This document shows, in pieces, positions 32,041 through 48,001 of a DNA stretch of 56,262 nt. How positions within the stretch are numbered: position 1 is the stretch's first letter; the number at the start of each line of letters is the position of its first letter. This DNA comes from a virus (taxonomy: Duplodnaviria > Caudoviricetes), in the IMG/VR virus record IMGVR_UViG_3300009506_000039, positions 1 to 56,262 of that record. The stretch is one strand, 5' to 3'. The position numbers and the translations under genes are program-made. The notes beneath the pieces were generated by a model. The model saw nothing but the letters and a program-made list of their open reading frames with translations, ran no database searches and was not told the origin of the DNA.

Positions 32041-32048
32041 GTGCCAAA

Positions 32049-32968: not shown

Positions 32969-33978
32969 TAGAAAAGCCTCCCTTGTTCGACCATTTCCGA
33001 CTCTGTGTCGTACTCAAGATCGAGATCATTGTACTCGTCGCCAACGTCGAGATCGAAAGGATCGTCGACGAGCGGGCGCACTTGATCGGTGCCCGCGTCC
33101 GTGAGTGCAGTACAGCCGATCCGCTGCGTGCCCTCAAGCGTCAAGACAGAGTCGCCCAAGAGCGCGCCCTGATCGAGCTCTGACTTGTCGACTCGCGCAA
33201 GCGCGGGGATCGACTCTCGCAAGTCGAGCCCGTCGAGCTCGTTCCCCAGACAGTACCAACCGGGCAAGTGACGACGTGCGAACAGTTCGACGTACACATG
33301 CCCGCTCTCAGGGGGATACATGCGCTCTGTTCGTTTCTGCGCCTCGTCAGGCTTGACGCTGTGCTTTTTGTCAGAGCCGGGCAGATATCGGCGCGGCGCA
33401 AAGATCACTTGTCGTCGCGCTTTCGTGCGCTCGAACGTCTTGCCATTGAACACTAGCCCGCTTTCTGTCTCGTGAGCTCGACGAGCAAGCAAGACGATCT
33501 CGACGTTACTCGCAGTATACGCGCCCGGACCAAAGACAGTCAACTTGTCGAGAAACGGCTGCAAGCGCCCCGTCTCTGTGATCTCGTCGACAAGTGATCG
33601 CACTTTGCGCAGTGTGAGCACAGGCATGCGCCAAAAGCTTGCATTGATCTTGATCCACACAAAAGCGCACGTGCAGTACTTGAACCCCCAGGCGCTCATG
33701 AGCTCGAACGCGTCGGGCAGAAAAGGGAACGTCACCCACATGAACAAGTACGCGCGCTCGTCGGCGATCTCGCCGACTGGGATCGTGCTCATGTCGCGCG
33801 TGCTCTCTGTCAAGTACCGCTCACTTGCGCCGATGCCGAAACGAGTCAAGCGCTCTGGGTTGTCTCGACGAGTCGCGCGTCGATTATTGTATCGCCACGC
33901 GGGATCGCAAAAGATCATGCTTGCTTTCACGAGAAACGCTTTGCCAAGTGACGAGCGGCGCGCGCCCGTCCGAGGCAC
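32968..33978 (-). CDS. MT-A70 family N6-adenine DNA methyltransferase
   Basis: CDPAW (DPPW-like), YLFMWVT, WGFKY...FVWIK, HSVKP, VELFAR...GW...GNE. Confidence 0.9.
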   Translation of the reverse strand: MPRTGARRSSLGKAFLVKASMIFCDPAWRYNNRRATRRDNPERLTRFGIGASERYLTESTRDMSTIPVGEIADERAYLFMWVTFPFLPDAFELMSAWGFKYCTCAFVWIKINASFWRMPVLTLRKVRSLVDEITETGRLQPFLDKLTVFGPGAYTASNVEIVLLARRAHETESGLVFNGKTFERTKARRQVIFAPRRYLPGSDKKHSVKPDEAQKRTERMYPPESGHVYVELFARRHLPGWYCLGNELDGLDLRESIPALARVDKSELDQGALLGDSVLTLEGTQRIGCTALTDAGTDQVRPLVDDPFDLDVGDEYNDLDLEYDTESEMVEQGRLF

Positions 33979-34352
33979 GTATCACAGACGACGTGATCTT
34001 TGTCTGCGATCGGCTCCCCACAGTTCGAGCAAGCTGCATACTCAAGATCGAGCTCGCCGCCTGCCGTCTCACGAGCCAACCCGTCGAATACGATACCGTG
34101 ACCGGCCGCGCCGATCTTGAGTCGCACACTGTCTGCCTCGTGCTCTGCGCAGAACACAATAAAGCACGGCGGGGAGTCTCGGCGTCTTGAGACTTGCGAT
34201 ATACACACGAACATGTGACCCCGGCGCGGCTGCAGTTCTATACCCAGCCCGCCGAGTCCGTCAGCGATTATGAGCTTTACATGCTCACCTTGACGATCTC
34301 TCTGGGGCGCGATTGTCGATACGCCCACATGCGTGCACTCGTCGATCCTCAT
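33927..34352 (-). CDS. Hypothetical protein with C-terminal zinc ribbon
   Basis: CSNCG...VCDTC; ATGA overlap. Confidence 0.5.
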   Translation of the reverse strand: MRIDECTHVGVSTIAPQRDRQGEHVKLIIADGLGGLGIELQPRRGHMFVCISQVSRRRDSPPCFIVFCAEHEADSVRLKIGAAGHGIVFDGLARETAGGELDLEYAACSNCGEPIADKDHVVCDTCLGRARAARHLAKRFS

Positions 34353-34702
34353 TGAGACACCTCCAAGACGAGAGCGGGCGCGATCTCTGCCTCGTCGGGG
34401 CTGACTTGCTTCCAGCCTTGTGCAATCATACTGCGCAGCAAGTGCCCGCCCATCGCCTCAAGCTCGTCTTTGTCGAGCACTTTGATCGCCCAACCCTTGC
34501 GGGCGCCGTGCCTTGCAAAGACGATATTGCCCTCATAACGTCGCCACGCTTGGCGAACTTTCCAGCGGGCGTTACTCGACGTGACCTCGTCGATCTTGAT
34601 CGCGTGCTCTCTGTCTTTGCACTCTGGGCACGCCGTTCGCCCGTCGTCCATAAGTCTGGGCGTCAAGGTGCGCCCATAGCAGACCTCACATACTGCAAAC
34701 AT
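34349..34702 (-). CDS. Hypothetical zinc-ribbon protein
   Basis: CEVC...CPEC; RBS AAAGAGG; ATG 34702. Confidence 0.65.
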   Translation of the reverse strand: MFAVCEVCYGRTLTPRLMDDGRTACPECKDREHAIKIDEVTSSNARWKVRQAWRRYEGNIVFARHGARKGWAIKVLDKDELEAMGGHLLRSMIAQGWKQVSPDEAEIAPALVLEVSQ

Positions 34703-34703
34703 G

Positions 34704-35159
34704 TCAACCTCTTTTCTTGAACTCTGTATACTGTGCGCGCTTGTACGCGCGTTTGCCGCTGCACACGGGGCAGAACGGTCGAGCACCGCCCCATGCTTTG
34801 AGCCTGAACTCGACAGAGAGATCGTACCCTTCCCAGGGGCGCGCAACCTCAAGCCTGACCTCTTTGATCTTGTCGGGCAGTCTGCGGCGCGGGCGCTCTG
34901 GGTCGGGCTCTGTGTTGAACAGTGCGCGCAAGAACGCGCACGAGTCGCCCCTCAAGTGCTCCTCAAAGCGCTCGTCGATCTCTCTCTGTGTCGAGCCGAT
35001 ATAATGGATCACGAGCTCTTGATCGTCGTCGCCGTGCGTGATCGTGATATGCAGCAAGTATATATTGCCGACCCGCTTTTTGTTGTCTCGTGTGACGAGT
35101 CTGATCTCGTCGTCTGACAGTCGAGACTTGACTCGCCCAGTGCGCCAGGGGGAGCTCAT
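34704..35159 (-). CDS. GIY-YIG nuclease
   Basis: GNIYLLH...HYIGST...RFEEH...E.RLK...CPVC. Confidence 0.85.
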   Translation of the reverse strand: MSSPWRTGRVKSRLSDDEIRLVTRDNKKRVGNIYLLHITITHGDDDQELVIHYIGSTQREIDERFEEHLRGDSCAFLRALFNTEPDPERPRRRLPDKIKEVRLEVARPWEGYDLSVEFRLKAWGGARPFCPVCSGKRAYKRAQYTEFKKRG

Positions 35160-35374
35160 GAGTACCACTTGTCCATGTCGTCGAACGTCTCGATCAGAGT
35201 CTCGACGCGCGCAGCAAGGGGCGTGCCCCTTGCGAACTCTCGCAAGACGTCGCAGAGAATACGATCCGCCTGTTCGTGCTCGTCGTCCCCCGGTGCCCAC
35301 TGCGAGAGCAAGCGCATGCGTATGAGCTTTGCCTCAAGTACTTGTTCGACTTGGTTCTCTTTCTGTGCGTCCAT
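35156..35374 (-). CDS. Small phage protein (72 aa)
   Basis: RBS AGGAG; EHEQADRILC...FDDMDKWYS. Confidence 0.65.
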   Translation of the reverse strand: MDAQKENQVEQVLEAKLIRMRLLSQWAPGDDEHEQADRILCDVLREFARGTPLAARVETLIETFDDMDKWYS

Positions 35375-35375
35375 G

Positions 35376-35837
35376 CTAGTCGTTCTCCTGTCCTGATTGC
35401 TCATAATCTGCACGACAAGACGCGCAGACAGCGCGGGGCGCGTCGACTGGGTTTTTGCCGCAAGCTGCGCACGGGATACGCGCCCAGCCGGTGACGTCGT
35501 GTACGTGCTCACAGTGCGCGTTATGCACATCTTGCACGAGATCGCGCGCGACTCGCCCAAGTCTGACATGCCACATAGTTTGAGCCCAGACGACTCGGGC
35601 GGAGTCGTCGCCGTCGAGCGGCTGCACGAGCCCCCGAACAAAGAGCTCAAGCTCGTCGGCTTGTCTGTTCAAGAGCTCGATCAAGTCGGTGCACTCGCGC
35701 TGCAGAGTCGGGGACGCTTTCACGTGATCGCAGAGCTCCCCCGCGTCTTTTGCTTGCTCTCTCAGTTCAAGATACATCATGGCCAAGTGCGCGATCACGT
35801 GAGTCTCTTGTCTCTTGCTCCACTGTCGTGTGTTCAC
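35376..35837 (-). CDS. Hypothetical protein with C-terminal zinc ribbon (153 aa)
   Basis: RBS GGAGG; CAAC...CASC. Confidence 0.7.
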   Translation of the reverse strand: MNTRQWSKRQETHVIAHLAMMYLELREQAKDAGELCDHVKASPTLQRECTDLIELLNRQADELELFVRGLVQPLDGDDSARVVWAQTMWHVRLGRVARDLVQDVHNAHCEHVHDVTGWARIPCAACGKNPVDAPRAVCASCRADYEQSGQEND

Positions 35838-36172
35838 AGTTCTACCTCCCTGCCTTCTGCTAGAATGGTTCCGAGCTTGTGATAATTGGGCAAGACGTCG
35901 GCCGCGTACGCGATCCTGTCGAGATCGTCGAGCCCCATGTCGATCAAGAATTGTGCCGCGTCGAGTCGCATGCTTGCTGTGATCTCTGCGCTCGTGCTCA
36001 CGACGTCTTGTGCAGCTTGTGCGACTATAAGCACGAGCACGCGCATGTCATCGTAGCCCGGCACTTGCCAATGGTCGTCGATCTCTCTCAGTGTAGCAAG
36101 CAAGTGCTCGACGTCTGGGGGCAAGCTCTCTTTTGCTTTGTTCTTTGCGCCCTTTGGTCTACCGCGTGGCAT
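35834..36172 (-). CDS. Hypothetical protein with AT-hook-like N-terminus
   Basis: MPRGRPKGAKNK; RBS GAGG. Confidence 0.65.
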   Translation of the reverse strand: MPRGRPKGAKNKAKESLPPDVEHLLATLREIDDHWQVPGYDDMRVLVLIVAQAAQDVVSTSAEITASMRLDAAQFLIDMGLDDLDRIAYAADVLPNYHKLGTILAEGREVEL

Positions 36173-36527
36173 AGTCGTCGTCCTCAAAGATCAAGCGCCC
36201 GTCGTCAAAGTCGACGACGGCGAGCCAGACCCAGTGCTCAGGCTCGTCGAGAACGTCGACCCCAGAGATCGGGTCATACGCGCCCGAGTCGAACAAGTCA
36301 GAGAACCAGACGCACGACTCGACGAGCGCGGTGAGGTTGAGCTCGTCAGTCATCGGGTCGACGTGCTCGTCTGCGTCTGTCTCGAAAAAGTGGATCGTGT
36401 GCGCGTACAGAGTCGCAGCGCGCGTCTTGATCTCTTTCGTCAAGTCTGCGCGATCGGCGCGCGCGGAGTACGTGCTCAAGACATAGTCGGGCAAGTTGGC
36501 GATCTGTCGTTTCATGTGTGCGTTCAT
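36159..36527 (-). CDS. Hypothetical acidic protein (122 aa)
   Basis: AGAAAGAGAG leader motif before ATG. Confidence 0.7.
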   Translation of the reverse strand: MNAHMKRQIANLPDYVLSTYSARADRADLTKEIKTRAATLYAHTIHFFETDADEHVDPMTDELNLTALVESCVWFSDLFDSGAYDPISGVDVLDEPEHWVWLAVVDFDDGRLIFEDDDYATR

Positions 36528-36547
36528 GAGTGTGCGCTCTCTTTCTA

Positions 36548-36946
36548 CTAGGCGACGAGCTCAAGCTCGTCTGGGCGGGGTGCAAACGCTCGACGCTGCG
36601 CGCGCATGTCTGCATAGTCTGACAAGACGGAGCGTGCTTTGCTCGTGGCGTTCTCAAGTGCGATCAGTGCGTCGGTCAAAACCTCTGCGTACTGTGTGCG
36701 CTCTGTCTCGGGCTCGACGTAAAGATCAAAGTCGCGCTCGACGTCGCGCAGTGCTTGGCGAGTCTCTGAGAGCAAGCACTCACAGTGCGGAAGCTCCGTT
36801 TTTAAGTGCTCGACATACGCGCGCTCGACGTGCGCCGACTCTCTCGTCTCAAAGAGTGCGTCGACTTTGTGACGTGCGGCCCAGAGTCTCCCGACGTATA
36901 CGCGCGCTGTGCGATCTTGGCCTGCTAGTGTCCAGAGCTTGTGCAT
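36548..36946 (-). CDS. Hypothetical protein (132 aa)
   Basis: TAATG overlap coupling. Confidence 0.7.
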   Translation of the reverse strand: MHKLWTLAGQDRTARVYVGRLWAARHKVDALFETRESAHVERAYVEHLKTELPHCECLLSETRQALRDVERDFDLYVEPETERTQYAEVLTDALIALENATSKARSVLSDYADMRAQRRAFAPRPDELELVA

Positions 36947-37266
36947 TATAGCGTCTCACTTTCGATCTCTGACTCTGCGCGCAAGATTGCGAGAGTATAG
37001 CGGATCACGATCTGATGGAACGGGGTAGCATGGCGATCAAGCTGTGCGCGCATCTTGAGCGCTATGAGCTCGTGGCGACTCTGAGGAATTGCGAGTCTGA
37101 AAGACTCGCCCCAGGTCGTGCAGTATAGCGCTTGCTTTTCCTCGCCGGGCACGCGCTCAAAGTCGTACACGTAGCCATTGACGGTGCGCATGCGCTTGCT
37201 GCGCAAAAGTCTTGTCGTCGTCTTTGCTATTGCGATCTCAAGTGCGGACTGTGCTTGTGTGCTCAT
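36946..37266 (-). CDS. Hypothetical protein (106 aa)
   Basis: First gene after class A promoter; GAAAGAGAG leader. Confidence 0.7.
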   Translation of the reverse strand: MSTQAQSALEIAIAKTTTRLLRSKRMRTVNGYVYDFERVPGEEKQALYCTTWGESFRLAIPQSRHELIALKMRAQLDRHATPFHQIVIRYTLAILRAESEIESETL

Positions 37267-37304
37267 TGATCTCTCTTTCGTCTGTCTCTGTGCGTTCAAC
37301 TTAC

Positions 37305-37339
37305 GACTAGATTATATCATACTCGGAACCACTTGTCAA
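37305..37339 (-). promoter_or_regulatory. Early promoter class A, copy 2
   Basis: Minus strand TTGACA-17-TATAAT; shared GACTAGATTATATCA. Confidence 0.85.
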
Positions 37340-37354: not shown

Positions 37355-37438
37355 TTTTCGCAAAGTGCTTGCCTTTTTATTCCTCACGTGGTATAATGCC
37401 TACATAGAAAAGCCGCTTTTCTGCGAACTTTGCGAAAA
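37355..37438 (+). promoter_or_regulatory. Partition-island promoter flanked by 12-bp inverted repeat
   Basis: TTGCCT(37369)-17-TATAAT(37392) with TG; TTTTCGCAAAGT (37355-66) / ACTTTGCGAAAA (37427-38). Confidence 0.7.
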
Positions 37439-37460: not shown

Positions 37461-37754
37461 ATGACAAAAGGCTTGTCGACGAAAGACGCAATCAAAGCAC
37501 GTGCAGCGCTTACGGGCGCTGTGTCTGAGCCGGGCATGGCCGACGACGTCGAGCACGTTCTCGCCTGGATCAGGGCAAGCGCGCCGGTCGTCGCCCCGTA
37601 CAAGCTCACGGGGGCACACGTGCTAACAGCCGCTTTGCAGCGCGTTCCGATTGCTCTTGGCGACGACGATCAGATCGTCGCCATCGTTCTACCCGCCGAC
37701 GAGCATGGCCTCATGGCCGCGCTCGGATACGTCGCCTCGACTACCCAACCGTAA
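37461..37754 (+). CDS. Hypothetical protein (97 aa)
   Basis: RBS AAGGAG; first gene of island. Confidence 0.75.
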   Translation: MTKGLSTKDAIKARAALTGAVSEPGMADDVEHVLAWIRASAPVVAPYKLTGAHVLTAALQRVPIALGDDDQIVAIVLPADEHGLMAALGYVASTTQP

Positions 37755-37787
37755 GATCGAGCGGCAGGAACCCGAAAGGAGTCCAAC

Positions 37788-38867
37788 ATGCCCAACAATA
37801 TACTGCACCCCGTAGGCGTCGATCTCGGGTACTGGGACGTGAAAGCGCGCAGCATGCGCCGTTTCTACTCTGGCCCGTCTTGCATCGGCACCCCAGATCA
37901 CGCGCGCTTTGCTGCAAGCTCTGCGCTCGACTATGGCGCGATCCGCTATGACGGACAAGAGTACTTTTGCGGAGACGTCGCGCTGACTCATAGTCGCAGC
38001 GTCACCCGATCGGAGGGACGCGATCGAGTCGGGCGCGACGAGTACCGCGTCTTGTTCTTGCACGCTCTGCATCAAATCATGCGACACATGCCCTCTGGCA
38101 GAAAGAACCCGACCGGGCAGCCTGGCCTATACAACCCGAACGGTCAGACGTCGATCTTGCTCGTGACCGGCTTGCCTGTGGCGTTCTATGAGGACGCTGA
38201 TCTCGACGCCGTCGAGACTGCGCTCTTTGGACAGCACATCATAACCGCAGCGAACGGGCGCGCGGGCGAGTCGAGAGAGCACACGATCAACGTCGTACCC
38301 GAGTCGCGGATCGTGCCGCAGCCGTTCGGCACGCTGTTCTCTCTGACACTCACGGACAAGGGTGAGTATTCTGATCAAGCGCACTTGCTCGACGAGCGCG
38401 TCGGCATCCTCGACATTGGCGGCAAGACGACGAACGTCCAGCTTGTCGAGAACGCCGCCGCTATGGAGGCGACGAGCACGTCGATCAATGCTGGCGCGTG
38501 GTCTGTCGTGCGCGCACTGTCGCCGCTCTTGACTCGGCGCTTTCCCAAGCTCGAACAGTCCGATCGCGTCTTGCGCGCCGCTTTGCGAGATCGACAAGTC
38601 AAGTACATGGGGACAATGTACAGCATTGCCGACGAGGTCTTGCAAGTCTCTGAGCCTCTGGCCGATCAGATCGCAGCTAAGGCCGACGAGTACTGGTCAG
38701 GCGGTGCAAGCTGCGATCACATCTTGATCACGGGCGGCGGCGCTCTGTTGATCGGGGAACTCGTCGCGCGCACGTTCGCTGACCACGGAAGCGTGCGGGT
38801 GGTCGAGGACGCGCAGAACGCCAACGCGGTCGGGTTCTATCGGTTCGCCCGCATGATCGCGGGCTGA
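37788..38867 (+). CDS. parM: ParM/StbA-family actin-like ATPase
   Basis: GVDLGYWDVK, VTGLPV, VPQPFG, ILDIGGKTTN, ITGGGA, NAVGF actin-fold motifs. Confidence 0.92.
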   Translation: MPNNILHPVGVDLGYWDVKARSMRRFYSGPSCIGTPDHARFAASSALDYGAIRYDGQEYFCGDVALTHSRSVTRSEGRDRVGRDEYRVLFLHALHQIMRHMPSGRKNPTGQPGLYNPNGQTSILLVTGLPVAFYEDADLDAVETALFGQHIITAANGRAGESREHTINVVPESRIVPQPFGTLFSLTLTDKGEYSDQAHLLDERVGILDIGGKTTNVQLVENAAAMEATSTSINAGAWSVVRALSPLLTRRFPKLEQSDRVLRAALRDRQVKYMGTMYSIADEVLQVSEPLADQIAAKADEYWSGGASCDHILITGGGALLIGELVARTFADHGSVRVVEDAQNANAVGFYRFARMIAG

Positions 38868-38911
38868 TTCCCATAGCTCATTATTGAGCCTCAACAAAGG
38901 AGACTTTTTCT

Positions 38912-39301
38912 ATGTTCGATCCACAAGACAGCATGGGCAGTACTCTCGAACGTCTCGCACGACTGCTCCAAAAGCAAAAAGAAAGAGAGACAGAGCTCTT
39001 GCAAGGCTCGATCGATATGCTCTCTGGCGTCGTTCGATCTGCGGCGACCACGGGCGCGATCGCGACAATCGCCGCCACGATCACGCGCGCACTTGCAGCG
39101 CTCTTGTCGTTCGGCCTGTTCGTGCTCTCTCTCTGGGGGCTGATCGTGCGCGACTTTGAGCGCGTGCCCTTTCGATGGCCGGGGATTGCTGCGCTCGTCG
39201 TGCTTGCGCTCTGCGCTCTGTTCTCGGGCTCCCTCTTTCTTGCGGGCGGCAAGCGCAAAGTCGACGAGGACGACGACGAGTCGAACGACGACGAGGCATA
39301 A
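38912..39301 (+). CDS. Membrane protein (2 TM, 129 aa)
   Basis: ALAALLSFGLFVLSLWGLIV and IAALVVLALCALFSGSLFL; acidic tail. Confidence 0.75.
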   Translation: MFDPQDSMGSTLERLARLLQKQKERETELLQGSIDMLSGVVRSAATTGAIATIAATITRALAALLSFGLFVLSLWGLIVRDFERVPFRWPGIAALVVLALCALFSGSLFLAGGKRKVDEDDDESNDDEA

Positions 39302-39304
39302 TCC

Positions 39305-39655
39305 ATGGCCTCGGTGTCTGTGACGTTCTCATACAACCCCGATCACTATCCCGAACTGCACGCTTGGCTTGAGGCAATGAGGGGTGACAAGTCGGCGCAG
39401 TGGCGACAGTTCATGACGGCGCATCTGACCGGCAAGGGTTGCTTGCAGTCAGAGGCGACGCTCGACTCAGAGCTTGAGACGTCGCCCGACTCGCACACAC
39501 TGCGAGACGTGCTTGAGACGGTGCAGCGCATAGAGGCAGAGCTCAAAGCAAGCAAGGGTGCATGGGTCGTGCGCGACGAGCAAGACGAACAAGTCGAGCC
39601 CGTCGTCTCAAAGGCGACGCGCGCCAACTTGTTATCACTTGGGAGACGATCATGA
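39305..39655 (+). CDS. Putative ParR/StbB-like ribbon-helix-helix adaptor
   Basis: N-terminal strand VSVTFSY then helices (ELHAWLEAM...KSAQWRQFM); C-terminal amphipathic tail RANLLSL; near parM. Confidence 0.5.
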   Translation: MASVSVTFSYNPDHYPELHAWLEAMRGDKSAQWRQFMTAHLTGKGCLQSEATLDSELETSPDSHTLRDVLETVQRIEAELKASKGAWVVRDEQDEQVEPVVSKATRANLLSLGRRS

Positions 39656-41076
39656 AACAGACAACCAAAGCGGCAATGAAAGCAGAGGCGCGCGCAAAGC
39701 ACTTGCACAAGCTCGCCGAGAACCTGACGCTTGCTGCGTACTCTGAAAGGCTGGGCAAGGGCGCGGCGATCTCTGACTTTTACGCGATCAATGGTCCGCG
39801 CTCTGGGGCGCTAGAGATCAGGGCTGGCTTTTCTGTGGGCGACATACGTGCTGCACTCGTCAAGAACGACGCCGCGATCTTGCGCAATCTGATCCCCTGG
39901 CAGTTCGGGGGCGATCCGTCTGTGTTCATGAACGGCGCGCTTTTGCGCGTCGAGGCTGCATGGCCCGCCGACTTGCAGGACACAGAGGTCTTGCTCTCTC
40001 GTCTCGGGTGGGGACCGCTTGGCAATGCCCGAACTGGTCAGCCGCGCGCGCCCCAGTACAGAGACGCCGAGACGTTCGCACATGATCACCAGTGGATCAC
40101 GGGGATCAATGAGAACGGCGGCACCTTGCTTGCAGCGCTCGACGACGTAACCCCGAACTGGCTACTTGCTGGACTGCCCGGCTCGGGTAAGTCGACTGCT
40201 CTGCAAGCTGCGGTGGTCGGGCTCACACGTCCGGGGACGAACGAACTGATCATGCTTGACGGCAAGTATGGTGCGAGCCTGCGCACTGTCGAGCACTTGA
40301 GCCCATGGGCGCTTGCGACAGAGATCGAGACTATGCGCGACGCGCTCGGCTATGCGTTCGAGGAAATGCAGCGCAGATACCGCAGCGGTCAGACTGTCGA
40401 CTCGACAGACGTGCCCCCGCGTCTCGTGATCGTCTTTGACGAGTTTCAAGACTACATGGCCGACGCTGTGATCTCTGCGCTCATGTCTCGTCTTGCGCGC
40501 ATGGGGCGGCAAGTGAACGTACACTTGATCATAGCCACGCAGCACCCAAGTCTTGAGGCGTTCGGGGGCGACACAGTCGCGCGCCGCTGCATATCAGGAC
40601 GCATGGCCTTGCGAGTCGCAGACCCGAAAGCCTCGGAGGTCGCGCTCGGCGTCACGCAGCCGCAAGCTCACAAGCTGCAAGGCAAGGGAGACATGATTGT
40701 CTTGACCCCGAACGCTTGCCACAGAGCTCAAGGCGTACTCTTGTTGCCGCGCGACGTCGAACTTGTCGGCGCGCCCTACGCCGATCGGATCGCGTTTCCC
40801 CAGTTCGACCCCGCAAGCCTTGAGGGGGACGAGACGAAAGAGACGCGCAGCGCATCGCGACGCCCGATCTGGAAACAAGAGGAAATCACAAGCGCGCTCT
40901 TGTCTGCGATCGCAGAGGAGGGGCGTGATAAACTGCGCGTGAGAGTAAAGGACGCGCTGGGCATGAGTCGCATGATCGGGGCGACTCGTGCACGCGCTTT
41001 GCTTGAACTTGGGCGTCAAGCCTGGGACGAGATCGCGGATAGTGACGAGCTCGCCCAGTACGTACAGTCACTATAA
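39652..41076 (+). CDS. FtsK/SpoIIIE (TraB-like) DNA translocase
   Basis: PNWLLAGLPGSGKS, MLDGK, EMQRRY, IVFDEF, LARMGR...LIIATQHP, LQGKGD; gamma-like C-terminus IGATRARALLE. Confidence 0.9.
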   Translation: MKQTTKAAMKAEARAKHLHKLAENLTLAAYSERLGKGAAISDFYAINGPRSGALEIRAGFSVGDIRAALVKNDAAILRNLIPWQFGGDPSVFMNGALLRVEAAWPADLQDTEVLLSRLGWGPLGNARTGQPRAPQYRDAETFAHDHQWITGINENGGTLLAALDDVTPNWLLAGLPGSGKSTALQAAVVGLTRPGTNELIMLDGKYGASLRTVEHLSPWALATEIETMRDALGYAFEEMQRRYRSGQTVDSTDVPPRLVIVFDEFQDYMADAVISALMSRLARMGRQVNVHLIIATQHPSLEAFGGDTVARRCISGRMALRVADPKASEVALGVTQPQAHKLQGKGDMIVLTPNACHRAQGVLLLPRDVELVGAPYADRIAFPQFDPASLEGDETKETRSASRRPIWKQEEITSALLSAIAEEGRDKLRVRVKDALGMSRMIGATRARALLELGRQAWDEIADSDELAQYVQSL

Positions 41077-41121
41077 AAGCCGAAGTGTGCCGCGCACACT
41101 CGCAGCAAAGGAGAACCCAAG

Positions 41122-41484
41122 ATGGAGTACATTATGATCGGGGGCGTAAAGACGCCCATAAGCCGCGGCGATCCCGAGATCGTCAAGCAAGGGATCAAAA
41201 CAAAGGGCCAGTCAAAGTACGCAGAATTGATCGCGGCCGTCTGCGCTCTGTCGCCGGGCGACAAAAGCCTCGACGTGAGACAGCCCACCAAGCGCAAGGG
41301 CATCTTGATCAGGAACACAGTCAACGGGTTGTCGAGCTTGCCCAAGGCCTCGACGTGCAAAGACAAGCGCAAGCTGGCATGGCCGCTTGTCGTCGTGACC
41401 TCCTGGGTGTCAGACGATCCCGACAACACCCCGGACGGGCCGGGTGTCTTGCGCATCTGGATGGACGAGCGCGACGACGACTAG
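41122..41484 (+). CDS. Hypothetical basic protein (120 aa)
   Basis: RBS AAAGGAG. Confidence 0.7.
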   Translation: MEYIMIGGVKTPISRGDPEIVKQGIKTKGQSKYAELIAAVCALSPGDKSLDVRQPTKRKGILIRNTVNGLSSLPKASTCKDKRKLAWPLVVVTSWVSDDPDNTPDGPGVLRIWMDERDDD

Positions 41485-41543
41485 TCGGGCGCCTGACTGC
41501 CTAGCAGTCGGCGTGCACTGCACACGTAAAAGGGGAGCAGAGC

Positions 41544-42077
41544 ATGATCAAGAGACGTGAACAAGACAGTCAGACAGACAAAGCGAAAGAGGCGAAAGCG
41601 CCAACTTCACCCCCGCACATGCACGACGGGGAGAGAGTGCGCGCGCTCCGAGAATGGATCGTGATCGTCGCGACTGGGATCGGCATCGTGCTCTTGATCA
41701 TGCTCGTCGTCTTGATCGGGCTGATCGTCTGGGATTATCTGTCAGACTTGCCCCGTCCAAAAGTTCAATGGTGGGCGCTCGGCTCGATCTTTCTCTTGCC
41801 GATCGCCTTTGGGTTCGGCGTCTTTCTGGGGACGCGTCTCGCAGACTATAGGCTCCGGTGGTTCACGTCTGACATGGATCGACTGTTCGGCACACTCGCC
41901 GCCGCTCTGTGGAAAGCGGGGACAGAAGCCTCAGACGTGCGCATATACGGGGCAGAGCGTATGCTCACGGGTTGGGAACAAAGGGGATCGCAAGAGATCG
42001 ACCTGGGCGACAAAGTGCACGGCATGCCGCGCTTTCACTCGGCGACAGACAGTCAAGAGCCGCCCACACAAGCATAG
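41544..42077 (+). CDS. Membrane protein (2 TM, 177 aa)
   Basis: WIVIVATGIGIVLLIMLVVLIGLIVW and WWALGSIFLLPIAFGFGVFLG. Confidence 0.8.
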   Translation: MIKRREQDSQTDKAKEAKAPTSPPHMHDGERVRALREWIVIVATGIGIVLLIMLVVLIGLIVWDYLSDLPRPKVQWWALGSIFLLPIAFGFGVFLGTRLADYRLRWFTSDMDRLFGTLAAALWKAGTEASDVRIYGAERMLTGWEQRGSQEIDLGDKVHGMPRFHSATDSQEPPTQA

Positions 42078-42087
42078 GGAGGAAAAC

Positions 42088-42690
42088 ATGAACAAAGCAA
42101 AAAGTGTGCTCTTTGTAATATGTGCACTCGTCGTCGTCACAGCCGGGATCGTGCTCTCGTCGACTGGCTGTCAAGTCGCAATCGAGAAAGAGCGCACAGC
42201 ACAAGAGCGCGCACAAGCTGCACAGCTTGAGGCGCTTGCTCGACAGACTGAGGCGATCGTCGAGCCCCAGATCATACGCTCTGAGGCCGATGCAGAGATC
42301 GATCTCTTTCTTGCTCGTGCGGGGGAGGCGCGCGATCAAGCTGTGCTCGACGCGTTTCTTGAGCTCACGCTTGAGCCTGTACGCCGCCGACAGTCTTGGC
42401 GCTTTCTCTTTCAAGTGATCTTGCCCGTCTCTCTGTTCGTTATCGGCATGATCGGCTTGCAAGCACTCGGGAGCGATGCGATCAAGACTCTCAGAGAGTA
42501 CGTGGGCGCATGCGCCCGTCAGGAAGGCACTAGAGCTTTTGAGTGCAAGACGACGTCACAAGATCGGGGGATTCGGCGCTCTGCGGGCGTTTCTGTCACG
42601 TTTCACACGTCGAGCGGCCCCGAGCTCTGGGGCGTCGAGACAGACGACGACACGCAAGAGCTCCACATACCGGGGCTTGAGCGCATTTGA
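42088..42690 (+). CDS. Membrane protein with TM-coiled coil-TM (200 aa)
   Basis: RBS GGAGG; VLFVICALVVVTAGIVL; Ala/Glu/Gln coil; VILPVSLFVIGMIGL. Confidence 0.75.
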   Translation: MNKAKSVLFVICALVVVTAGIVLSSTGCQVAIEKERTAQERAQAAQLEALARQTEAIVEPQIIRSEADAEIDLFLARAGEARDQAVLDAFLELTLEPVRRRQSWRFLFQVILPVSLFVIGMIGLQALGSDAIKTLREYVGACARQEGTRAFECKTTSQDRGIRRSAGVSVTFHTSSGPELWGVETDDDTQELHIPGLERI

Positions 42691-42694
42691 CACA

Positions 42695-42737
42695 AAGAGA
42701 GCGCACAGAGTATACAAACCTCTGGCGCTCTCTTTTT
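42695..42737 (+). terminator. Intrinsic terminator ending the partition island
   Basis: AAGAGAGCGC-CAGAG...CTCTG-GCGCTCTCTT followed by T run. Confidence 0.75.
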
Positions 42738-42764: not shown

Positions 42765-43073
42765 TTACTCGTCGAGCTTGTCGTCGTCGATCACGCGCTC
42801 GTCAAAGTGTGACGAGAGCTCGAACTCAAGATCGGGGCTGCGCTTTGTCGAGCAGTGCAAGAGCACTGCGAACTTGACCCATGTCTCAGTGTTCATGCAC
42901 AAGCGCCCACACATGCCCCCGTCCTGATATACAGTCACATGAGTGTGAGTCGTGTTTTGCTCTGTGATGTAAAAGACGAGCTTGGGACGACTGCGCCCAG
43001 ACAAGAGCGGATCAACGCTTGAGTCGAGAGCCCCGATCATCGTTGCTATGTCAGTGTACAATCGCCAAGTCAT
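42765..43073 (-). CDS. Hypothetical protein
   Basis: RBS GGAGG; ATGA overlap. Confidence 0.6.
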   Translation of the reverse strand: MTWRLYTDIATMIGALDSSVDPLLSGRSRPKLVFYITEQNTTHTHVTVYQDGGMCGRLCMNTETWVKFAVLLHCSTKRSPDLEFELSSHFDERVIDDDKLDE

Positions 43074-43693
43074 TTGTCCCTCCCGATCTCGATCTCGAAC
43101 TCGACGGGCATGCGCTCTTGATCGCCCGCGTCCTCGGGTACGCGCAAGTACAAGCTGCACGTCATGCCGAGAGCGTCAAAGACGCCCGTCCCGTCGTCTC
43201 TGAGGATTGCGAACTCTGCGCGATCACGCGGGCCGCACTTGTCGTGCAAGTCTGCACGCCCGGCGACTTGCACCTCTCGCAAGTCTGCGAACTTGAGACG
43301 CCCAACCGCGTGCACTGCGCTTGCATACACTCGCATGAACTCTTGCAGCAAGAGCGCGCGCTCGTCTGTCGTCTCTGTCGTGCGCACGTCCAGGCGTGTG
43401 TACGTCTGCCCGAGTGCGCCTAACCCCCTGCGGCTCACAAAGTCGCCCGTCTCATTCTTGCTCACGAGCCAGAACGCATGTAAGCTGTCGTCGATCTCGT
43501 GACGACTCACGGGTCGCCCAGACAGAGCGGCCATGCTCGTGCGCCCAGTACTCGGCAAGTCGATCTCGCCCGAGATCGTGATCTCGCGGTAGCCGACTCT
43601 GATCGAGAGCGTCATGCGCTTGTACTCCGTGACGTACTCGTGCAGTGTGTACGTGCGCTCATAAAAAGACGTCTGCCTCTGTGTGTGTTTCAC
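43070..43693 (-). CDS. Hypothetical protein (207 aa)
   Basis: RBS AAGGAGG; GTGA overlap. Confidence 0.7.
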   Translation of the reverse strand: MKHTQRQTSFYERTYTLHEYVTEYKRMTLSIRVGYREITISGEIDLPSTGRTSMAALSGRPVSRHEIDDSLHAFWLVSKNETGDFVSRRGLGALGQTYTRLDVRTTETTDERALLLQEFMRVYASAVHAVGRLKFADLREVQVAGRADLHDKCGPRDRAEFAILRDDGTGVFDALGMTCSLYLRVPEDAGDQERMPVEFEIEIGRDK

Positions 43694-44178
43694 TCTTTCG
43701 CCTCCTTACTGCTCAAGTCGACTCTTTGCTCGACGAACTCAAGAAACCCGATCACGTCTTGCTTGCTTGTGTATCCCGATCGGGGCATTGCAAGTGCCCA
43801 CGCTAGATCGTCGAGCTCGATCAGCTTGATCTCGCAAAAGTCGCGCAGCCCGTATGCTATGCTCTCATACCAGCTTCCGTGCTGTGGGGGCGTCTCAAGC
43901 TGTGCTTTCGCTCTCATGTACGCGCTCACGAACTCGGGCGACGGCGTGATCTTGCTGCGCTCGACCCATCCCTTGCCATCGCACTCATTGCACTTGCCGA
44001 GATTGTCTGCGCAAAAGTCGCACACGCCCGAGCCCCCGCACTCGTCGCAGTCTGCGCCCATCTTGTCTTGCCCGATCCCGTTGCACTCTTGACAATCGCC
44101 CGTCCCTGCGCACTCGGGGCACTTGCCATCACCGTCGCAATTGTCACATCGCTTTTGCCACTTGCGATCGTTGCTCAT
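43690..44178 (-). CDS. DnaJ-type zinc-finger repeat protein
   Basis: CDNCDGDG, CPECAGTG, CQECNGIG, CDECGGSG, CDFC, CNECDGKG. Confidence 0.8.
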   Translation of the reverse strand: MSNDRKWQKRCDNCDGDGKCPECAGTGDCQECNGIGQDKMGADCDECGGSGVCDFCADNLGKCNECDGKGWVERSKITPSPEFVSAYMRAKAQLETPPQHGSWYESIAYGLRDFCEIKLIELDDLAWALAMPRSGYTSKQDVIGFLEFVEQRVDLSSKEAKE

Positions 44179-44238
44179 TCTGATCTCCTCTCAGAGAGCG
44201 CGCGCTCTCTGTGCTGCGCGCGCTCTCGTTCTCGACTT

Positions 44239-45828
44239 TTAGTTCCAATTGATCTTTTGCTCTTTGAGCTCGGCAAGTTCGTCGGCAAGTTCGTCGCGCA
44301 AGTCGTCGACGAGCTCGTCAGTGCGAACGTCGACAGAGAACGGACGCCACGGACCCGCCCAACCCTGCGCGCTCTGCACGTGCGCGATAAAGTCGTCTTT
44401 CTCTGGATCGTCCTCAAGCTCTCTGTACTTGTCGTCGTCTCTGTGCGACTCTGCGATCCTCAGGATCGCAGTTCTGACGTCTGCCTCAAATTGCTCCTTG
44501 AGCTCTTGCAAGCGCTCGAACTCTGCCTTTAGTGCAGCATAGTCGTCATTCTCGTCGAGTACGTCGTCGACAAGCTCGTCGGCTGCGCGTCCACTGTCTG
44601 GCTTGCACTCGTCGCGCAGAGCAGAGACAATCGTCTCGAACGGCAGTGCGCGGAGCACTGCCTCTGCGATCAATTTGTAGTACCAGCGGGTGGGCAAGCT
44701 CTCAACCTCAAACCCCTTGGGCATGCTGTCAGAGAGATCGAGCTCGTCGTGCACGTGCCCGCACGCTTTGCACGTGTGCTGCCCGGCCAGAGCAAAGGGA
44801 GCGGTGGCGAACTCATAACGCGGGCCGGACCCTATCACGATCCACGACTCCCCGCACTGCTCACAAGTCGCAGTGTATAGCGCGTGCTCGTCTGCCCAAG
44901 TCTGATATCCCTTGTTCGAGACTTTGACAGAGTACGCGGCGCGCGCCCACTTGGGGGCAGCGGTCGCAAGCATCTTGCTCCCGTCGTCTCTCGTCTCGGC
45001 AAAGCTCTCGGGCTCGACGCCGACGCGCACGTCGATCACGTGCGGGGTGTAACGTCTGATCTGTTCTGCGAACGTCGGCGCGATCACGCTCTCGCCGTCG
45101 CAGTCATAATCAGAGATCGTCAAGCACAAGATCGGGCGCTCTCTAGTCACATACGGCATGCGCCCGTTCTCTGTCAAAGTGAACGCAGAGCGGAGCGCTT
45201 TCTCTGTCGCAGCGCGCCCCATCTTGCCTTTGCCCGAGACGAGCAGAGCGGCCCCGGTTGCTTGCGCGGCAGTGCGAAAGTCTTGGAACAGGCTGTCTTT
45301 TTCGACGCACAAGACGAGGTTGAGCCCCTGAAAGAGTCGATCATAGAATCGCTCGATCATTCTTGACGCGTCCTCGACCCACAAGTCTTTGTATGTGAGC
45401 CCCTGATCGACGAGCCCCCCGTAAGCGTCCGACTGTCGCCCGTTCCACAGACGATCATTGTACTCTCGCACGCCCTGACTGTTGATCTCATAATCGCCGA
45501 GCAAGTCTGCAAGGGGCTGTGCAATCTCTGCCTTAAAGTACGCGTACCAGTGGCGGCGGAGCGCTTTGAGCTCGTGATCGCCCTCTGGCCCGCCCTGCTC
45601 GTCAAAGATCGCCATTTGACAGACGACGGCGGCGCGACAGACGGCGGCACGAGAAAAGCCGGGCAACGTCTCAAGCGCTGCGCTCAAGTCGGGGTCGCGC
45701 AAGACCTCAGCCACGGGGTTTGCGTCTCGCGGCAGTCTTTTCGTGCTGTAGCCCGCATGGTGCACGAGCGCTGCGCCGAACTCGTCAAGATAATCCGTCC
45801 ATCGGGTTCCACTCTGCGTGTGTCTCAT
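44239..45828 (-). CDS. Topoisomerase VI-A/Spo11-like Toprim protein with zinc-ribbon insert
   Basis: LRRHWYAY (putative catalytic Tyr region), LCVEKDSLF, VSGKG, ISDYDCDG (DxD); CEQC...CKAC. Confidence 0.7.
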   Translation of the reverse strand: MRHTQSGTRWTDYLDEFGAALVHHAGYSTKRLPRDANPVAEVLRDPDLSAALETLPGFSRAAVCRAAVVCQMAIFDEQGGPEGDHELKALRRHWYAYFKAEIAQPLADLLGDYEINSQGVREYNDRLWNGRQSDAYGGLVDQGLTYKDLWVEDASRMIERFYDRLFQGLNLVLCVEKDSLFQDFRTAAQATGAALLVSGKGKMGRAATEKALRSAFTLTENGRMPYVTRERPILCLTISDYDCDGESVIAPTFAEQIRRYTPHVIDVRVGVEPESFAETRDDGSKMLATAAPKWARAAYSVKVSNKGYQTWADEHALYTATCEQCGESWIVIGSGPRYEFATAPFALAGQHTCKACGHVHDELDLSDSMPKGFEVESLPTRWYYKLIAEAVLRALPFETIVSALRDECKPDSGRAADELVDDVLDENDDYAALKAEFERLQELKEQFEADVRTAILRIAESHRDDDKYRELEDDPEKDDFIAHVQSAQGWAGPWRPFSVDVRTDELVDDLRDELADELAELKEQKINWN

Positions 45829-45913
45829 TGATCTCTCTTTCTGCGCCCGTGCTCTGCACGGCTGCGAGTGTGAGCGCGCGCACTTTGAGACGTCGTGCGC
45901 GCGCTCGTGTTTG

Positions 45914-46225
45914 CTAGTCGATCTTGACGTATACTTGACGAGCAAGGATCGTGTGCTCGTGCGCGATCTCGCGGTTTGGCTGGCGCGAGTCGAGATCAAG
46001 GGTAAAGACTTTGAGCTCATACGCTTGCAGAGCGATCAAGTCCCAGAGCGCGCCCAGACTCAAGTACTCGTCGATCAAGTCTGCGAGTCGTGCGGCTGCG
46101 GCGTCGAGCACGTCGTCTGTACTCTCGACGCGCTCGTCAAAAGAGACGGTCCACTCGATCTTGATCTCTTGCACTCTGGGGGCGCTCTCTCTGCATACTG
46201 TGTGCTCGGCTCGAACTGTCAACAT
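45914..46225 (-). CDS. Hypothetical protein (103 aa)
   Basis: AGAAAGAGAG leader. Confidence 0.7.
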   Translation of the reverse strand: MLTVRAEHTVCRESAPRVQEIKIEWTVSFDERVESTDDVLDAAAARLADLIDEYLSLGALWDLIALQAYELKVFTLDLDSRQPNREIAHEHTILARQVYVKID

Positions 46226-46290
46226 GTGCTTGCTCTCTTTCTGAGAGCGCGCGCTCGTGTAAGCTGCGCGCGCTCTCGATTGCGTCGACT

Positions 46291-46791
46291 TTACAGAAAG
46301 GCGACGGGCTCGTCGTTCTCAAAGTTCAGATCAAAGAGCGCGATCTCGTTCGTCAAGCGCTCGACGTGCGCTTTGTGCTCTTGTATCTTGCGCAGAGCTT
46401 GAGGGCTCAAGCGCACGACTGCGGCGTCTGTCGAGTTCAAGTACTGGTGGGTGCGGCTCGTGCGTGCTAGTCTCAAGCGCTCGATTGCGGCGCTGTGCAG
46501 CTTGCGCGCAGCGTGCAGCCCTTCCCATGTCGACTCGTCGAGCTCTGACTCAAAAGTGACGCTCACGTCGAGCGTGTACGTGGTCGGTCCCCCGTATGAG
46601 TTCTCACGGTGGCGGCTGATCTCGACAATCTCGGCGCTCTGCGAGAGCTCGAACGCGCGCGCGGCGATCTCGACGTCGTCGTCGAGTGCAAGCGCAAGCT
46701 CGACGTCGATCTCAAAGTACATGCGGTGCTCGTCGGAAAACGCGGCTTCTGGGACTGTGCTCGTGACTGTGAGACTTGCTTGCTTTTGCAT
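46291..46791 (-). CDS. Hypothetical protein (166 aa)
   Basis: First gene after class A promoter; AGAAAGAGAG leader. Confidence 0.75.
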   Translation of the reverse strand: MQKQASLTVTSTVPEAAFSDEHRMYFEIDVELALALDDDVEIAARAFELSQSAEIVEISRHRENSYGGPTTYTLDVSVTFESELDESTWEGLHAARKLHSAAIERLRLARTSRTHQYLNSTDAAVVRLSPQALRKIQEHKAHVERLTNEIALFDLNFENDEPVAFL

Positions 46792-46838
46792 CTTGTGTGC
46801 TCTCTTTCTGTGTGTGTGTGCGCTCTCTCATATGGTAC

Positions 46839-46873
46839 GACTAGATTATATCACGCCGCAGAAAGTGTGTCAA
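46839..46873 (-). promoter_or_regulatory. Early promoter class A, copy 3
   Basis: Minus strand TTGACA-17-TATAAT; GACTAGATTATATCA. Confidence 0.85.
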
Positions 46874-46993
46874 GAGGCACTTTTCTGCAATGATACAGAA
46901 CGATGCACGAACGATGTATAATGATACATACCGAACGCACGACTTTTGCGTCTTTTTCGAGCTCGGCACAATTGACTTTTGCTCGACGCACAA

Positions 46994-47039
46994 AAAAAGC
47001 GCAGACTTTGACGAAAAGCTCACAAAGTCTGCGCTTTTT
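46994..47039. terminator. Intrinsic terminator
   Basis: 17-bp stem AAAAAGCGCAGACTTTG...CAAAGTCTGCGCTTTTT. Confidence 0.85.
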
Positions 47040-47053
47040 GCGCTATGCGCTCA

Positions 47054-48001
47054 TCATTCTCTCAATTGCTCTGCGCTCGGTTGCTCGTCGTTCGGTCCCC
47101 CGCACAGTTCCTCAAGCTGCACGGACAGTCTTTCGAGTCGCACCTCAAGCAAGTCGGCCTCATACTGCGGCTCTGTCTTGAGAGTGTGATCGTCGTTGCG
47201 CTTGCTCTCGTCTGTCATAATCGCGCGCAGACGGCGGGCGCCATCGTCGATTGCAGCTTGTACAGTCTCAGCCGTCGCGCTGCGGCTGTGTGCAAACTCA
47301 TACACGCGCATGCCGTCGATGTACTCTTGACCCATAGCGATCAAGTACGCTGTCTCTCGTGCGAACAGCGCAGCGCCCTTGATCTGGGCTTGCTCGACTG
47401 CGCGTCGAGTGTTCGATCCGCCCTGGCTCGACGTCGCGCGATCGAGAACGAACTCTTGAGCGCGATCGTACTCTTTGCAGACTTGATCGAGCAAGCACAC
47501 GCACGCGTGCGCCATGTCTCTCTCGACGAGCACTTGACGAGCAATCGACAAGCACTTGCCCGCGCGCTCTGCCTGCGCCTCGGCCGTGAGCGCTTCCTCT
47601 GCATTGTACGCCATAGCGTCGGCAAGGCTCTGGCTCCCGAGTCGACGCTCAAAGCGCTTGAGCGCTTCCGCGTGCTTACGTATCATACTCTCAAGATCGC
47701 GTCTGAGAGAGCGCCACGCATAGAGCGTGGGCAAGGGGCCCATCGGCAAGCTCTTGCGCTCGTCTGATATGCGCTCACGTTCGCGCTTGAGCACATCATA
47801 GTGCCTCTGTACTGCGGCGCGGAGCGCGCCGTTTTTCGTTCTGATCTCGTCTGACTTGTCGTCGTCGATTGCTTTGATCTGGACGTCGAGCGCGTGGGCT
47901 GCGCTGTGCAGTGCCCATGCTCTGTTCATTGTAATGGCATTGATCTCGTGGGCGGGACGCGTGCGGCTATCGGCTGATCTCAGTTCGCTTGCGCTTGTCA
48001 T
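47054..48001 (-). CDS. Hypothetical helical/coiled-coil protein (315 aa)
   Basis: AGAGAGAGAG leader; Ala/Arg/Glu-rich. Confidence 0.75.
   Translation of the reverse strand: MTSASELRSADSRTRPAHEINAITMNRAWALHSAAHALDVQIKAIDDDKSDEIRTKNGALRAAVQRHYDVLKRERERISDERKSLPMGPLPTLYAWRSLRRDLESMIRKHAEALKRFERRLGSQSLADAMAYNAEEALTAEAQAERAGKCLSIARQVLVERDMAHACVCLLDQVCKEYDRAQEFVLDRATSSQGGSNTRRAVEQAQIKGAALFARETAYLIAMGQEYIDGMRVYEFAHSRSATAETVQAAIDDGARRLRAIMTDESKRNDDHTLKTEPQYEADLLEVRLERLSVQLEELCGGPNDEQPSAEQLRE

Follow-up and report, generated by a model that had tools for sequence, protein, structure and literature searches.

Here we present the observed gene content, folds, motifs, synteny and taxonomic spread of an eight-gene operon at positions 37461-42690 of IMG/VR record IMGVR_UViG_3300009506_000039; the window is the entire record of 56,262 bp, classed as linear and siphovirus-like, with an estimated completeness of 72%. 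We interpret the operon as a DNA-handling module; the siphovirus-like phage that carries it has its relatives mainly in Chloroflexota genomes of the Anaerolineae type. It is well supported that the module combines a type II segregation-like pair with an FtsK-type motor for double-stranded DNA (dsDNA), and the locus represents a clade of phage FtsK-like motors that are soluble and split, in this case with a ParM-ParR (ParMR) pair attached. Handling of the phage's own extrachromosomal DNA is the most economical function for such a combination. Our preferred, tentative reading, to which we assign a probability of roughly 45%, is that the operon segregates or positions this DNA and holds a membrane-tethered dsDNA pump acting at septa.

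Four of the eight genes are central to this finding:

39652-41076, + strand: FtsK-type alpha-beta motor of 474 aa, soluble, whose C-terminal helical domain is conserved and resembles a helix-turn-helix (HTH)
41544-42077, + strand: putative partner protein with two transmembrane (TM) segments, 177 aa, of an unannotated family encoded 3' of the FtsK-like gene in relatives
37788-38867, + strand: actin-like protein (ALP) of the ParM/ALP family, 359 aa, with Pfam, PHROG and PDB matches
39305-39655, + strand: putative ParR-like adaptor, 116 aa, recognised with a profile of the small proteins that follow the ALP gene in relatives

An ATG at 39652 that overlaps the stop codon of the preceding gene (ATGA) is the most likely start of the motor gene; this corrects an earlier start and gives the 474-aa product. 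The protein matches the Pfam family PF01580 (FtsK_SpoIIIE) at 65.1 bits, against a cut-off of 24, and its identity to FtsK proteins is about 23-35% over the motor. All 33 aligned family members share Walker A (G-x-x-G-S-G-K), Walker B (D-E) and further motor residues without variation. An AlphaFold (AF2) model built from this 33-member alignment, with a mean predicted local distance difference test score (pLDDT) of 89, begins with a soluble helix. In Foldseek, FtsK motors on dsDNA were its best matches (6t8g, 2ius and 2iut, E 1e-21 to 2e-19), 6t8g reaching E 1.1e-21 and a TM-score of 0.70 by target over about 400 columns that include the alpha domain, and TcpA of pCW3 (4e-17) and EccC (2.8e-14) came after them. 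Likewise, the profile of the motor family matched FtsK in the PDB at 3.8e-41, EccC at 1.8e-25 and TcpA at 1.3e-21. An earlier reading of the window, made from the letters alone and here called the sequence-only reading, had described an FtsK-type ATPase devoid of TM helices, and this was borne out: the fold is that of an FtsK motor, and no N-terminal membrane domain was recognised in the protein, which has no hydrophobic segment and no match to PF13491 (FtsK_4TM).

The C-terminal ~70 residues of the motor are conserved, with the family consensus G-R-P ... P-G-x-x-R-A-x-R-L-L-x-L-G-R-E. The R-A-x-R-L-L-x-L-G-R-E portion resembles, at the motif level only, the recognition helix of FtsK gamma domains, and MAFFT places the third helix of this region on the recognition helix of the gamma domain of a Thermoflexus FtsK. 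The sequence-only reading had gone further and seen a gamma-like winged HTH tail, a claim that we could not confirm. Pfam FtsK_gamma (PF09397) has no match in the motor, and hhalign against FtsK gamma domains aligned 13 columns (P 0.034). Folded alone, the domain gave four helices and no wing (pLDDT 91); Foldseek with the isolated domain returned nothing at E <1, and VIA-align gave generic HTH proteins with a best Z of 4.8. We therefore treat the region, as modelled, as a probable DNA-binding helical domain and not as a demonstrated gamma domain.

Synteny was analysed across 40 loci, namely the window with 8 viral, 24 metagenome and 8 genome relatives, one metagenome duplicate of a viral contig having been dropped. 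These full-length relatives came from 45 confirmed viral loci (8), 43 metagenome loci (24) and 32 genome loci (8), at 31-42% identity; open reading frames (ORFs) were called by a crude rule of length and GC pattern and clustered by BLASTP. Of the 36 loci with 500 nt or more of sequence downstream of the motor gene, 27 have a gene of the 2-TM family (~135 aa) on the same strand within 1.2 kb on that side; one locus with a shorter downstream sequence has it as well. Three of the nine loci that lack it hold other small TM ORFs at that place. A profile of the 27 relatives' proteins matches the 41544-42077 product at E 2e-13, and no Pfam model scores above cut-off for the family. Among 1.84 billion sequences, 361 representatives were found at E <=0.001; the best 150 are all 113-214 aa, so none of those is fused to an ATPase. 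Also, no fused long form of the motor clade was found among longer proteins, where only canonical FtsK appeared, at ~1e-12, which is weak evidence. The pairing of motor and 2-TM gene is a strong comparative signal and suggests that the two products may touch; a complex prediction for them scored 0.01 in a run without controls and is evidence neither way. A literature search of limited coverage found no paper describing the pairing.

Furthermore, some of the loci repeat the gene order ParM, small protein, motor. Of the 18 loci (window included) whose sequence reaches at least 2.5 kb upstream of the motor, 7 have an ALP gene on that side. The short locus L059 likewise has one upstream, L097 has it 5 kb downstream, and in G001 and G006 the linkage runs across the contig ends. 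Lack of any conserved linkage had been set beforehand as an outcome that would refute the sequence-only reading, and both this gene order and the 27 motor/2-TM loci speak for linkage. A word-indexed search with the motor gave 22 matches, with three close proteins besides the window's own, so that the clade is rare in that search. Scans of viral contigs with the motor or ParM as single proteins gave nothing, whereas the family alignment did find relatives.

Three further features of the related loci concern the motor gene and its neighbours. A second, shorter FtsK-like paralogue (~300-356 aa) stands beside the full-length gene in L053:34-2416, L057:580-3113, L058:89-2922, L060:70-2320 and L063:930-3972, the one in L060 having two hydrophobic segments; these short forms hint at hetero-oligomeric motors. 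In loci without an ALP gene, a family of 250-350-aa proteins with 1-4 hydrophobic segments and a weak C-terminal HTH match adjoins the FtsK-like gene (L002:8076-8963, L006:8759-9808, L009:8371-9189, L052:7858-8616, L054:6922-7761 and L095:11769-12647), and may be an alternative membrane-bound DNA-binding partner. Additionally, genes for DNA methyltransferases (N6_N4_Mtase, Dam) recur beside the FtsK-like gene of relatives (L002:6335-7615, L003:2592-3272 and 4020-4748, L052:5448-6554, L056:5952-7196, L069:735-1415 and 2163-2891).

The actin-like half of the module was assigned through its family matches. Both domains that define the actin fold of a ParM/ALP ATPase are present, ALP_N at 2.3e-19 (70.5 bits, cut-off 26.3) and MreB-like_C at 4.2e-14 (53.6 bits, cut-off 27.8), and the protein matches phrog_691, 'partition protein', at 3.5e-45. 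ParM chains in the PDB matched at 2.4e-9 (3js6, the best) to 1.6e-4. In NCBIfam, the ParM model PRK13917 (6.9e-25) and PRTRC protein D were hit under their cut-offs, and the curated ParM models all stayed far below theirs (88 bits vs 417). The 541 homologues include several named ParM or PRTRC protein D by their source databases, and the 120 that were listed are ~34-40% identical (self excluded).

The 116-aa protein encoded next to the motor gene has no Pfam or PHROG family match of its own. However, a profile of the small post-ALP proteins of four relatives, run against the eight island proteins, singled it out at E 1.4e-9 (27.8 bits), the next best being 0.1, and it is homologous to the small proteins encoded just 3' of the ALP gene in L007, L047, L059, L091 and L094. 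The six-sequence alignment displays a strand-helix-helix pattern at the N-terminus and, at the C-terminus, a conserved tail of the form L-x-x-L-G; the L047 member, the only relative to do so, has a weak RHH_1 match (0.0069). ParR in the PDB was not found by the adaptor-family profile, which returned only coiled-coil designs and sigma factors at E >0.001. From position, size and sequence pattern we take the protein to be a ParR-like adaptor, probably of the ribbon-helix-helix (RHH) type. The ParM and ParR-like assignments of the sequence-only reading thus agree with the family matches, the adaptor profile and the alignment, and its remark that a membrane-protein gene parts the two is likewise correct: the gene TM1 occupies 38912-39301, an insertion peculiar to this genome.

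The surroundings of the operon contain the following elements:

37369-37397, + strand: sigma-70-like operon promoter, TTGCCT, 17 nt, TATAAT, 10/12 matches, with a TG extension
37355-37366 and 37427-37438: arms of a perfect 12-nt inverted repeat that brackets the + strand promoter
37311-37339, - strand: sigma-70-like promoter of the leftward early genes, TTGACA, 17 nt, TATAAT, 12/12 matches, with a TG extension
42694-42735: intrinsic-terminator hairpin (16 pairs, then a U-run) that also serves the convergent - strand genes

Eight co-directional + strand ORFs fill 37461-42690, and the flanking genes, at 20961-37299 and 42765-48864, are all on the - strand; the first of these blocks includes two helicases and a DNA methyltransferase. 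The terminator hairpin, 4 nt past the last stop codon, has a folding energy of -25 kcal/mol (z -5.07), which none of 200 shuffles equalled. With its own promoter-like site and terminator, and with the - strand genes converging on it, the operon is a self-contained unit within a - strand early region, as the sequence-only reading had it. The ParR-like protein may use the inverted repeat at the operon promoter as an operator or a centromere-like site. The leftward and operon promoters stand back to back, a layout like that of a genetic-switch region; no repressor-type protein was recognised on either side of the divergent region.

In our preferred reading the operon would encode two machines. 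The first would be a type II actin-like segregation or positioning pair, in which ParM filaments would be coupled to phage DNA via the small ParR-like protein; this protein probably binds at or near the operon's own promoter, which the 12-nt inverted repeat brackets. The second would be a two-part translocase for dsDNA held at the membrane, consisting of a soluble FtsK alpha-beta motor that carries the conserved C-terminal domain of DNA-binding type, and a separate 2-TM hairpin protein that would contact the motor and replace the N-terminal membrane domain of FtsK, SpoIIIE and TraB. The phage DNA, either a plasmid prophage or the replicating genome, would be kept positioned and would then be cleared through closing septa, so that the cells of a filament could inherit or replicate it efficiently.

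SftA is a soluble FtsK/SpoIIIE paralogue of Bacillus subtilis. Like FtsK and SpoIIIE, including SftA, the phage motor has the alpha-beta motor fold and Walker motifs, and its best structural matches are FtsK hexamers on dsDNA. Unlike them, it is without the 4-TM N-terminal domain, the linker and a detectable FtsK_gamma, its C-terminal domain being a distinct helical bundle; it is also a phage product with a 2-TM partner protein of its own.

The segregation pair likewise has known counterparts. Like ParMRC of plasmid R1 and phage ALP systems such as that of Bacillus phage B83, described as a plasmid prophage with a ParM-like protein and an RHH adaptor (PMC8026635), the operon has an actin-fold gene followed by one for a small, probably RHH-like adaptor with a conserved tail, and as in ParMRC a repeat flanks the operon promoter. 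Unlike ParMRC, it has the orphan TM1 gene between parM and the adaptor gene and an orphan for a 97-aa protein ahead of parM, its curated ParM scores fall far under cut-off, an iterated centromere array was not found, and its role in plasmid maintenance is putative. The best precedent for an ALP that positions phage DNA is AlpAC of the Corynebacterium glutamicum prophage CGP3, also a phage ALP with an adaptor, which is co-transcribed and reported to bind in its own promoter region (PMC4446434). Unlike in the operon, the adaptor gene comes first there, the prophage integrates, and no FtsK-like gene belongs to the system as that source describes it (PMC4446434).

The sequence-only reading had also proposed a phage-plasmid. 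In its favour, the window carries virion genes (a 1,604-aa tape measure, minor tail proteins, the large terminase and the portal) together with partition genes in the form of the ALP pair, and the statement that no integrase is in the window still stands. A search for tyrosine recombinases (PF00589) gave nothing in the window, nor in G001 and G004, two relatives that are 100% complete with terminal repeats and carry both modules, and no serine recombinase (PF00239) was found in the five records in which it was sought (G000-G004, the window among them). PF00589 is present in G002, G003, G005 and G006; for the fragments, G007 has a sub-threshold match only and G008 none. The ALP gene is found in all three integrase-less records (the window, G001 and G004) and in two of the four integrase-bearing ones (G003 and G006), G002 having been checked within 10-kb flanks. 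An extrachromosomal or non-integrating lineage fits these data. G001 shares with the window distant homologues of the tape measure, two helicases, three more replication-region proteins, ParM and the motor. Open reading frames are truncated at either end of the record, at 1-135 (+), the final 44 codons of a gene, and at 54414-56261 (+), the portal gene, which runs off the 3' end; the contig is thus broken within the head-gene region, and for a cut record of this estimated completeness the absence of an integrase is not proven.

Several results weigh against the preferred reading. The motor/2-TM pair also occurs in the integrase-bearing G002, G003, G005 and G006, so its role is not specific to plasmid prophages; the ALP gene, too, is found in two integrase-bearing relatives, G003 and G006. 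Among the proteins scanned, none was recognised as a plasmid replication initiator, a repressor or another lysogeny marker, and 20 further window proteins yielded no repressor-type family. No iterated parC-like array or set of direct repeats was found, only the one inverted-repeat pair. The C-terminal domain has no significant gamma match by Pfam, hhalign, Foldseek or VIA-align, half of the operon genes (g1, TM1, g6 and TM3) are orphans, and the record is only 72% complete by estimate. The suggested host, moreover, comes from the metagenome-assembled genomes (MAGs) of relatives and not from this phage itself. Finally, AlpC of CGP3 is reported to serve the replication of an integrating phage and not plasmid partition (PMC4446434).

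A search for a skewed 8-mer of the kind that guides directional translocases had been suggested with the sequence-only reading, and it returned GCGCTCTG. This word has 34 copies in the window, compared with 8.8 +/- 2.8 in dinucleotide shuffles, none of 100 of which reached 34. Over the whole record 30 copies are on the + strand and 4 on the - strand (11720, 26683, 46044 and 51041), and this polarity is independent of gene direction, being 16:2 in blocks of + genes and 14:2 in blocks of - genes; 8-mer skews here normally flip with gene direction (correlation -0.29 over 483 8-mers). Among direction-independent words, GCGCTCTG ranks first at k = 7 and k = 8, and at k = 6 the first place goes to its core GCGCTC. 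All three reading frames contain copies, which share no longer consensus and are densest in the operon (6 copies in 5.3 kb, two overlapping at 39206-39220). In block-wise Markov simulations, the observed binomial p of 6e-6 was reached in 0 of 100 runs at order 3 and in 17 of 100 at order 5, so the significance of the polarity is moderate.

The over-representation and the 30:4 polarity of GCGCTCTG thus hold, but for this genome only. The word is nearly absent (0-1 copies per strand) from G001, G004 and ten related loci, and G001 and G004 have no direction-independent polar word of similar strength. Five MAGs containing relatives carry the 8-mer at about one tenth of the window's density and about twice that of the reversed-word control. 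Because of this near absence from relatives and low density in MAGs, GCGCTCTG was rejected as a family or host trait. The word might guide a directional translocase, protect DNA in the manner of a Chi site or imitate a word of the host chromosome; temperate lambdoid phages are reported to mimic the FtsK-orienting polar sequences (KOPS) of their hosts (PMC3603311).

An alternative that we consider unlikely is that the operon serves the logistics of DNA in the lytic cycle: the ALP and adaptor would bring replicating DNA to the membrane, where the motor and 2-TM protein would act, without any plasmid state, and a polar 8-mer could set the direction of the motor. The AlpAC system provides a precedent, with an adaptor binding in its own promoter region, early expression and a role reported as required for efficient replication (PMC4446434). 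The operon lies among early-type genes (helicases, methyltransferase), the motor/2-TM pair is present whatever the integrase status, no lysogeny marker or repressor was recognised among the proteins scanned, and the record-wide polarity of GCGCTCTG disregards gene direction. This word, however, is effectively absent from the two complete relatives with the same motor family and is consequently no family trait. In addition, we know of no precedent for an FtsK-type genome-entry motor in tailed phages, no search aimed at one having been made.

Many members of the Chloroflexota grow as filaments. The eight close genome relatives come from Anaerolineales (2), Anaerolineae (1), Thermoflexales (1), Chloroflexota (2), Planctomycetota (1, a 3-kb contig) and a 'delta proteobacterium' (1), that is, six of eight lie in Chloroflexota MAGs; these are MAG bins, so single assignments may err. 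The motor's best cellular homologue is the Thermoflexus FtsK, and structure-based Atlas neighbours include Chloroflexota clusters of soluble FtsK alpha-beta proteins, which we note as a lead only. The filamentous host envisaged by the sequence-only reading is therefore plausible, and filamentous Chloroflexota bacteria are, judging from the relatives' sequences, probably the hosts of the phage.

TraB of Streptomyces is membrane-associated and reads clustered 8-bp repeats in the clt locus. With a filamentous host in view, the motor and membrane proteins might form a septal or intercellular pore of the TraB/Spd kind that pumps dsDNA to neighbours in the filament without virions, which we hold to be improbable. 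As in the conjugative plasmids and actinomycete integrative and conjugative elements (AICEs) with TraB and Spd, which are reported to form a multiprotein complex for intramycelial spreading (PMC4447253), an FtsK-fold gene with a conserved C-terminal helical domain stands beside small, translationally coupled membrane-protein genes in a compact overlapping operon. The relatives, as noted, are mostly in Chloroflexota MAGs. The likeness to TraB, however, stops at the shared FtsK fold. The motor has no TM segment in cis, one that the separate 2-TM gene might supply, and sits in a tailed phage encoding a full virion set with tape measure, terminase and portal. No clustered 8-mer repeats like those of clt were found in or beside the operon: the 13 8-mers with at least 4 copies per 400 bp are all common GC-rich words with 17-59 copies genome-wide. 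PLSDB, with 72,556 plasmid records, has 667 that match the motor, none of which covers 80% of it. Two of the three membrane proteins are not conserved. The TraB/Spd likeness drawn by the sequence-only reading hence fails in three features, its own membrane association, clt and the plasmid or AICE context.

Phage accessory operons often carry genes for exclusion or defence. A membrane-anchored FtsK-like ATPase, helped by orphan membrane proteins, could accordingly act on incoming foreign DNA in superinfection exclusion or against plasmids, a proposal we rate as poor. In PADLOC the motor matches mad8 (9.2e-19) and SspH (4.9e-18), and the orphan TM genes vary between relatives. Yet only residues 153-354, the generic ATPase core, are covered by these matches, and the genes that accompany mad8 and SspH in their systems are absent. 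Moreover, the family profile is far closer to FtsK motors, and the linkage to an ALP gene in 7 of the 18 loci with enough flank better fits handling of the phage's own DNA.

Combining elements from the above, one may imagine a phage of filamentous Chloroflexota in which a two-piece pump, fed by the ALP, drives dsDNA via septa into neighbouring cells without virions, GCGCTCTG giving the direction; this most elaborate version is a long shot. The reading as an EssC/EccC-like (type VII) ATPase that secretes proteins, or as a coupling protein of type IV systems with a relaxase-bound substrate, can practically be dismissed: the secondary fold and profile matches to EccC and pCW3 TcpA and the sub-threshold NCBIfam matches to EccC are all weaker than those to FtsK motors, the protein has one ATPase domain with an FtsK-alpha-like N-terminal domain, and no WXG- or relaxase-type family was found among the eight island proteins, no relaxase search having been made elsewhere in the record.

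Returning to the segregation and septal-pump reading, its motor also has a place among the FtsK/SpoIIIE proteins of phages (PHROG 1358/3551, with members from Bacillus and Mycobacterium phages), matching phrog_1358 at 1.1e-33. In a tblastn search of the phage collection, 200 records matched the motor at <30% identity, many of them annotated as FtsK/SpoIIIE-like, and none covers 80% of it. A Chloroflexus-associated viral contig is described as carrying an integrase and an FtsK/SpoIIIE gene (PMC8597652), and FtsK/SpoIIIE-like genes are noted in Bacillus plasmid prophages (PMC11526630); in what these sources say of it, the function of the phage gene is given by analogy only (PMC8597652, PMC11526630). 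Unlike other phage FtsK-like proteins, the motor described here has its own N- and C-terminal domains and its own 2-TM partner. The locus therefore defines a distinct phage clade, of a motor without a membrane domain, mostly followed by a 2-TM family gene and often linked to an ALP.

Filamentous hosts have hardly been studied for phage biology. FtsK/SpoIIIE-like genes are annotated in many phages, and a testable hypothesis is that they encode a split dsDNA pump, tethered to the membrane, that works on the genome of the phage itself. If phage DNA were indeed pumped across septa, this would bear on the persistence and spread of phages in filamentous bacteria and on an evolutionary link between phages and TraB-type conjugation; if the operon is only an aid to segregation, the result is a useful annotation of two gene families.

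The other four genes of the operon, none of which has relatives in any of the 40 loci, are as follows:

37461-37754, + strand: g1, soluble orphan of 97 aa with a coding GC pattern
38912-39301, + strand: TM1, orphan of 129 aa with two hydrophobic segments and an acidic C-terminal tail
41122-41484, + strand: g6, soluble orphan of 120 aa, GC3 (GC content at third codon positions) 0.83, no Pfam or PHROG match
42088-42690, + strand: TM3, orphan of 200 aa with an N-terminal hydrophobic segment ending in Cys, a predicted coiled-coil and a second TM segment

For g1, Pfam, PHROG, NCBIfam and PADLOC gave no match. The three membrane proteins TM1, TM2 (the 41544-42077 product) and TM3 have 2-3 hydrophobic segments each, which upholds the description in the sequence-only reading; that they form one machine does not follow, since only TM2 is conserved. 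The GC content is 57-61% across the window and the operon is not distinct in this respect. Rfam had no match over the operon, a nucleotide search of the phage collection gave none for it either, and no tRNA genes were found in the window.

Elsewhere in the window, the methyltransferase of the leftward block and several accessory genes in the structural and packaging regions were recognised:

32968-33978, - strand: DNA methyltransferase, the window's own
5840-6958, + strand: glycosyltransferase-like protein (PF13524, 5.6e-20)
49672-50448, + strand: ABC-ATPase-like protein (phrog_11143, 3.3e-70)
51234-51980, + strand: CoA-transferase-III-like protein (6.5e-7)

Just downstream of the operon, 43690-44178 (-) encodes a Cys-rich protein of 162 aa with a weak match of the DnaJ zinc-finger type. 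The adjacent frame, 44239-46020 (-), encodes a 593-aa protein without a family match; the complete relative G001 has a protein with 40% identity to it.

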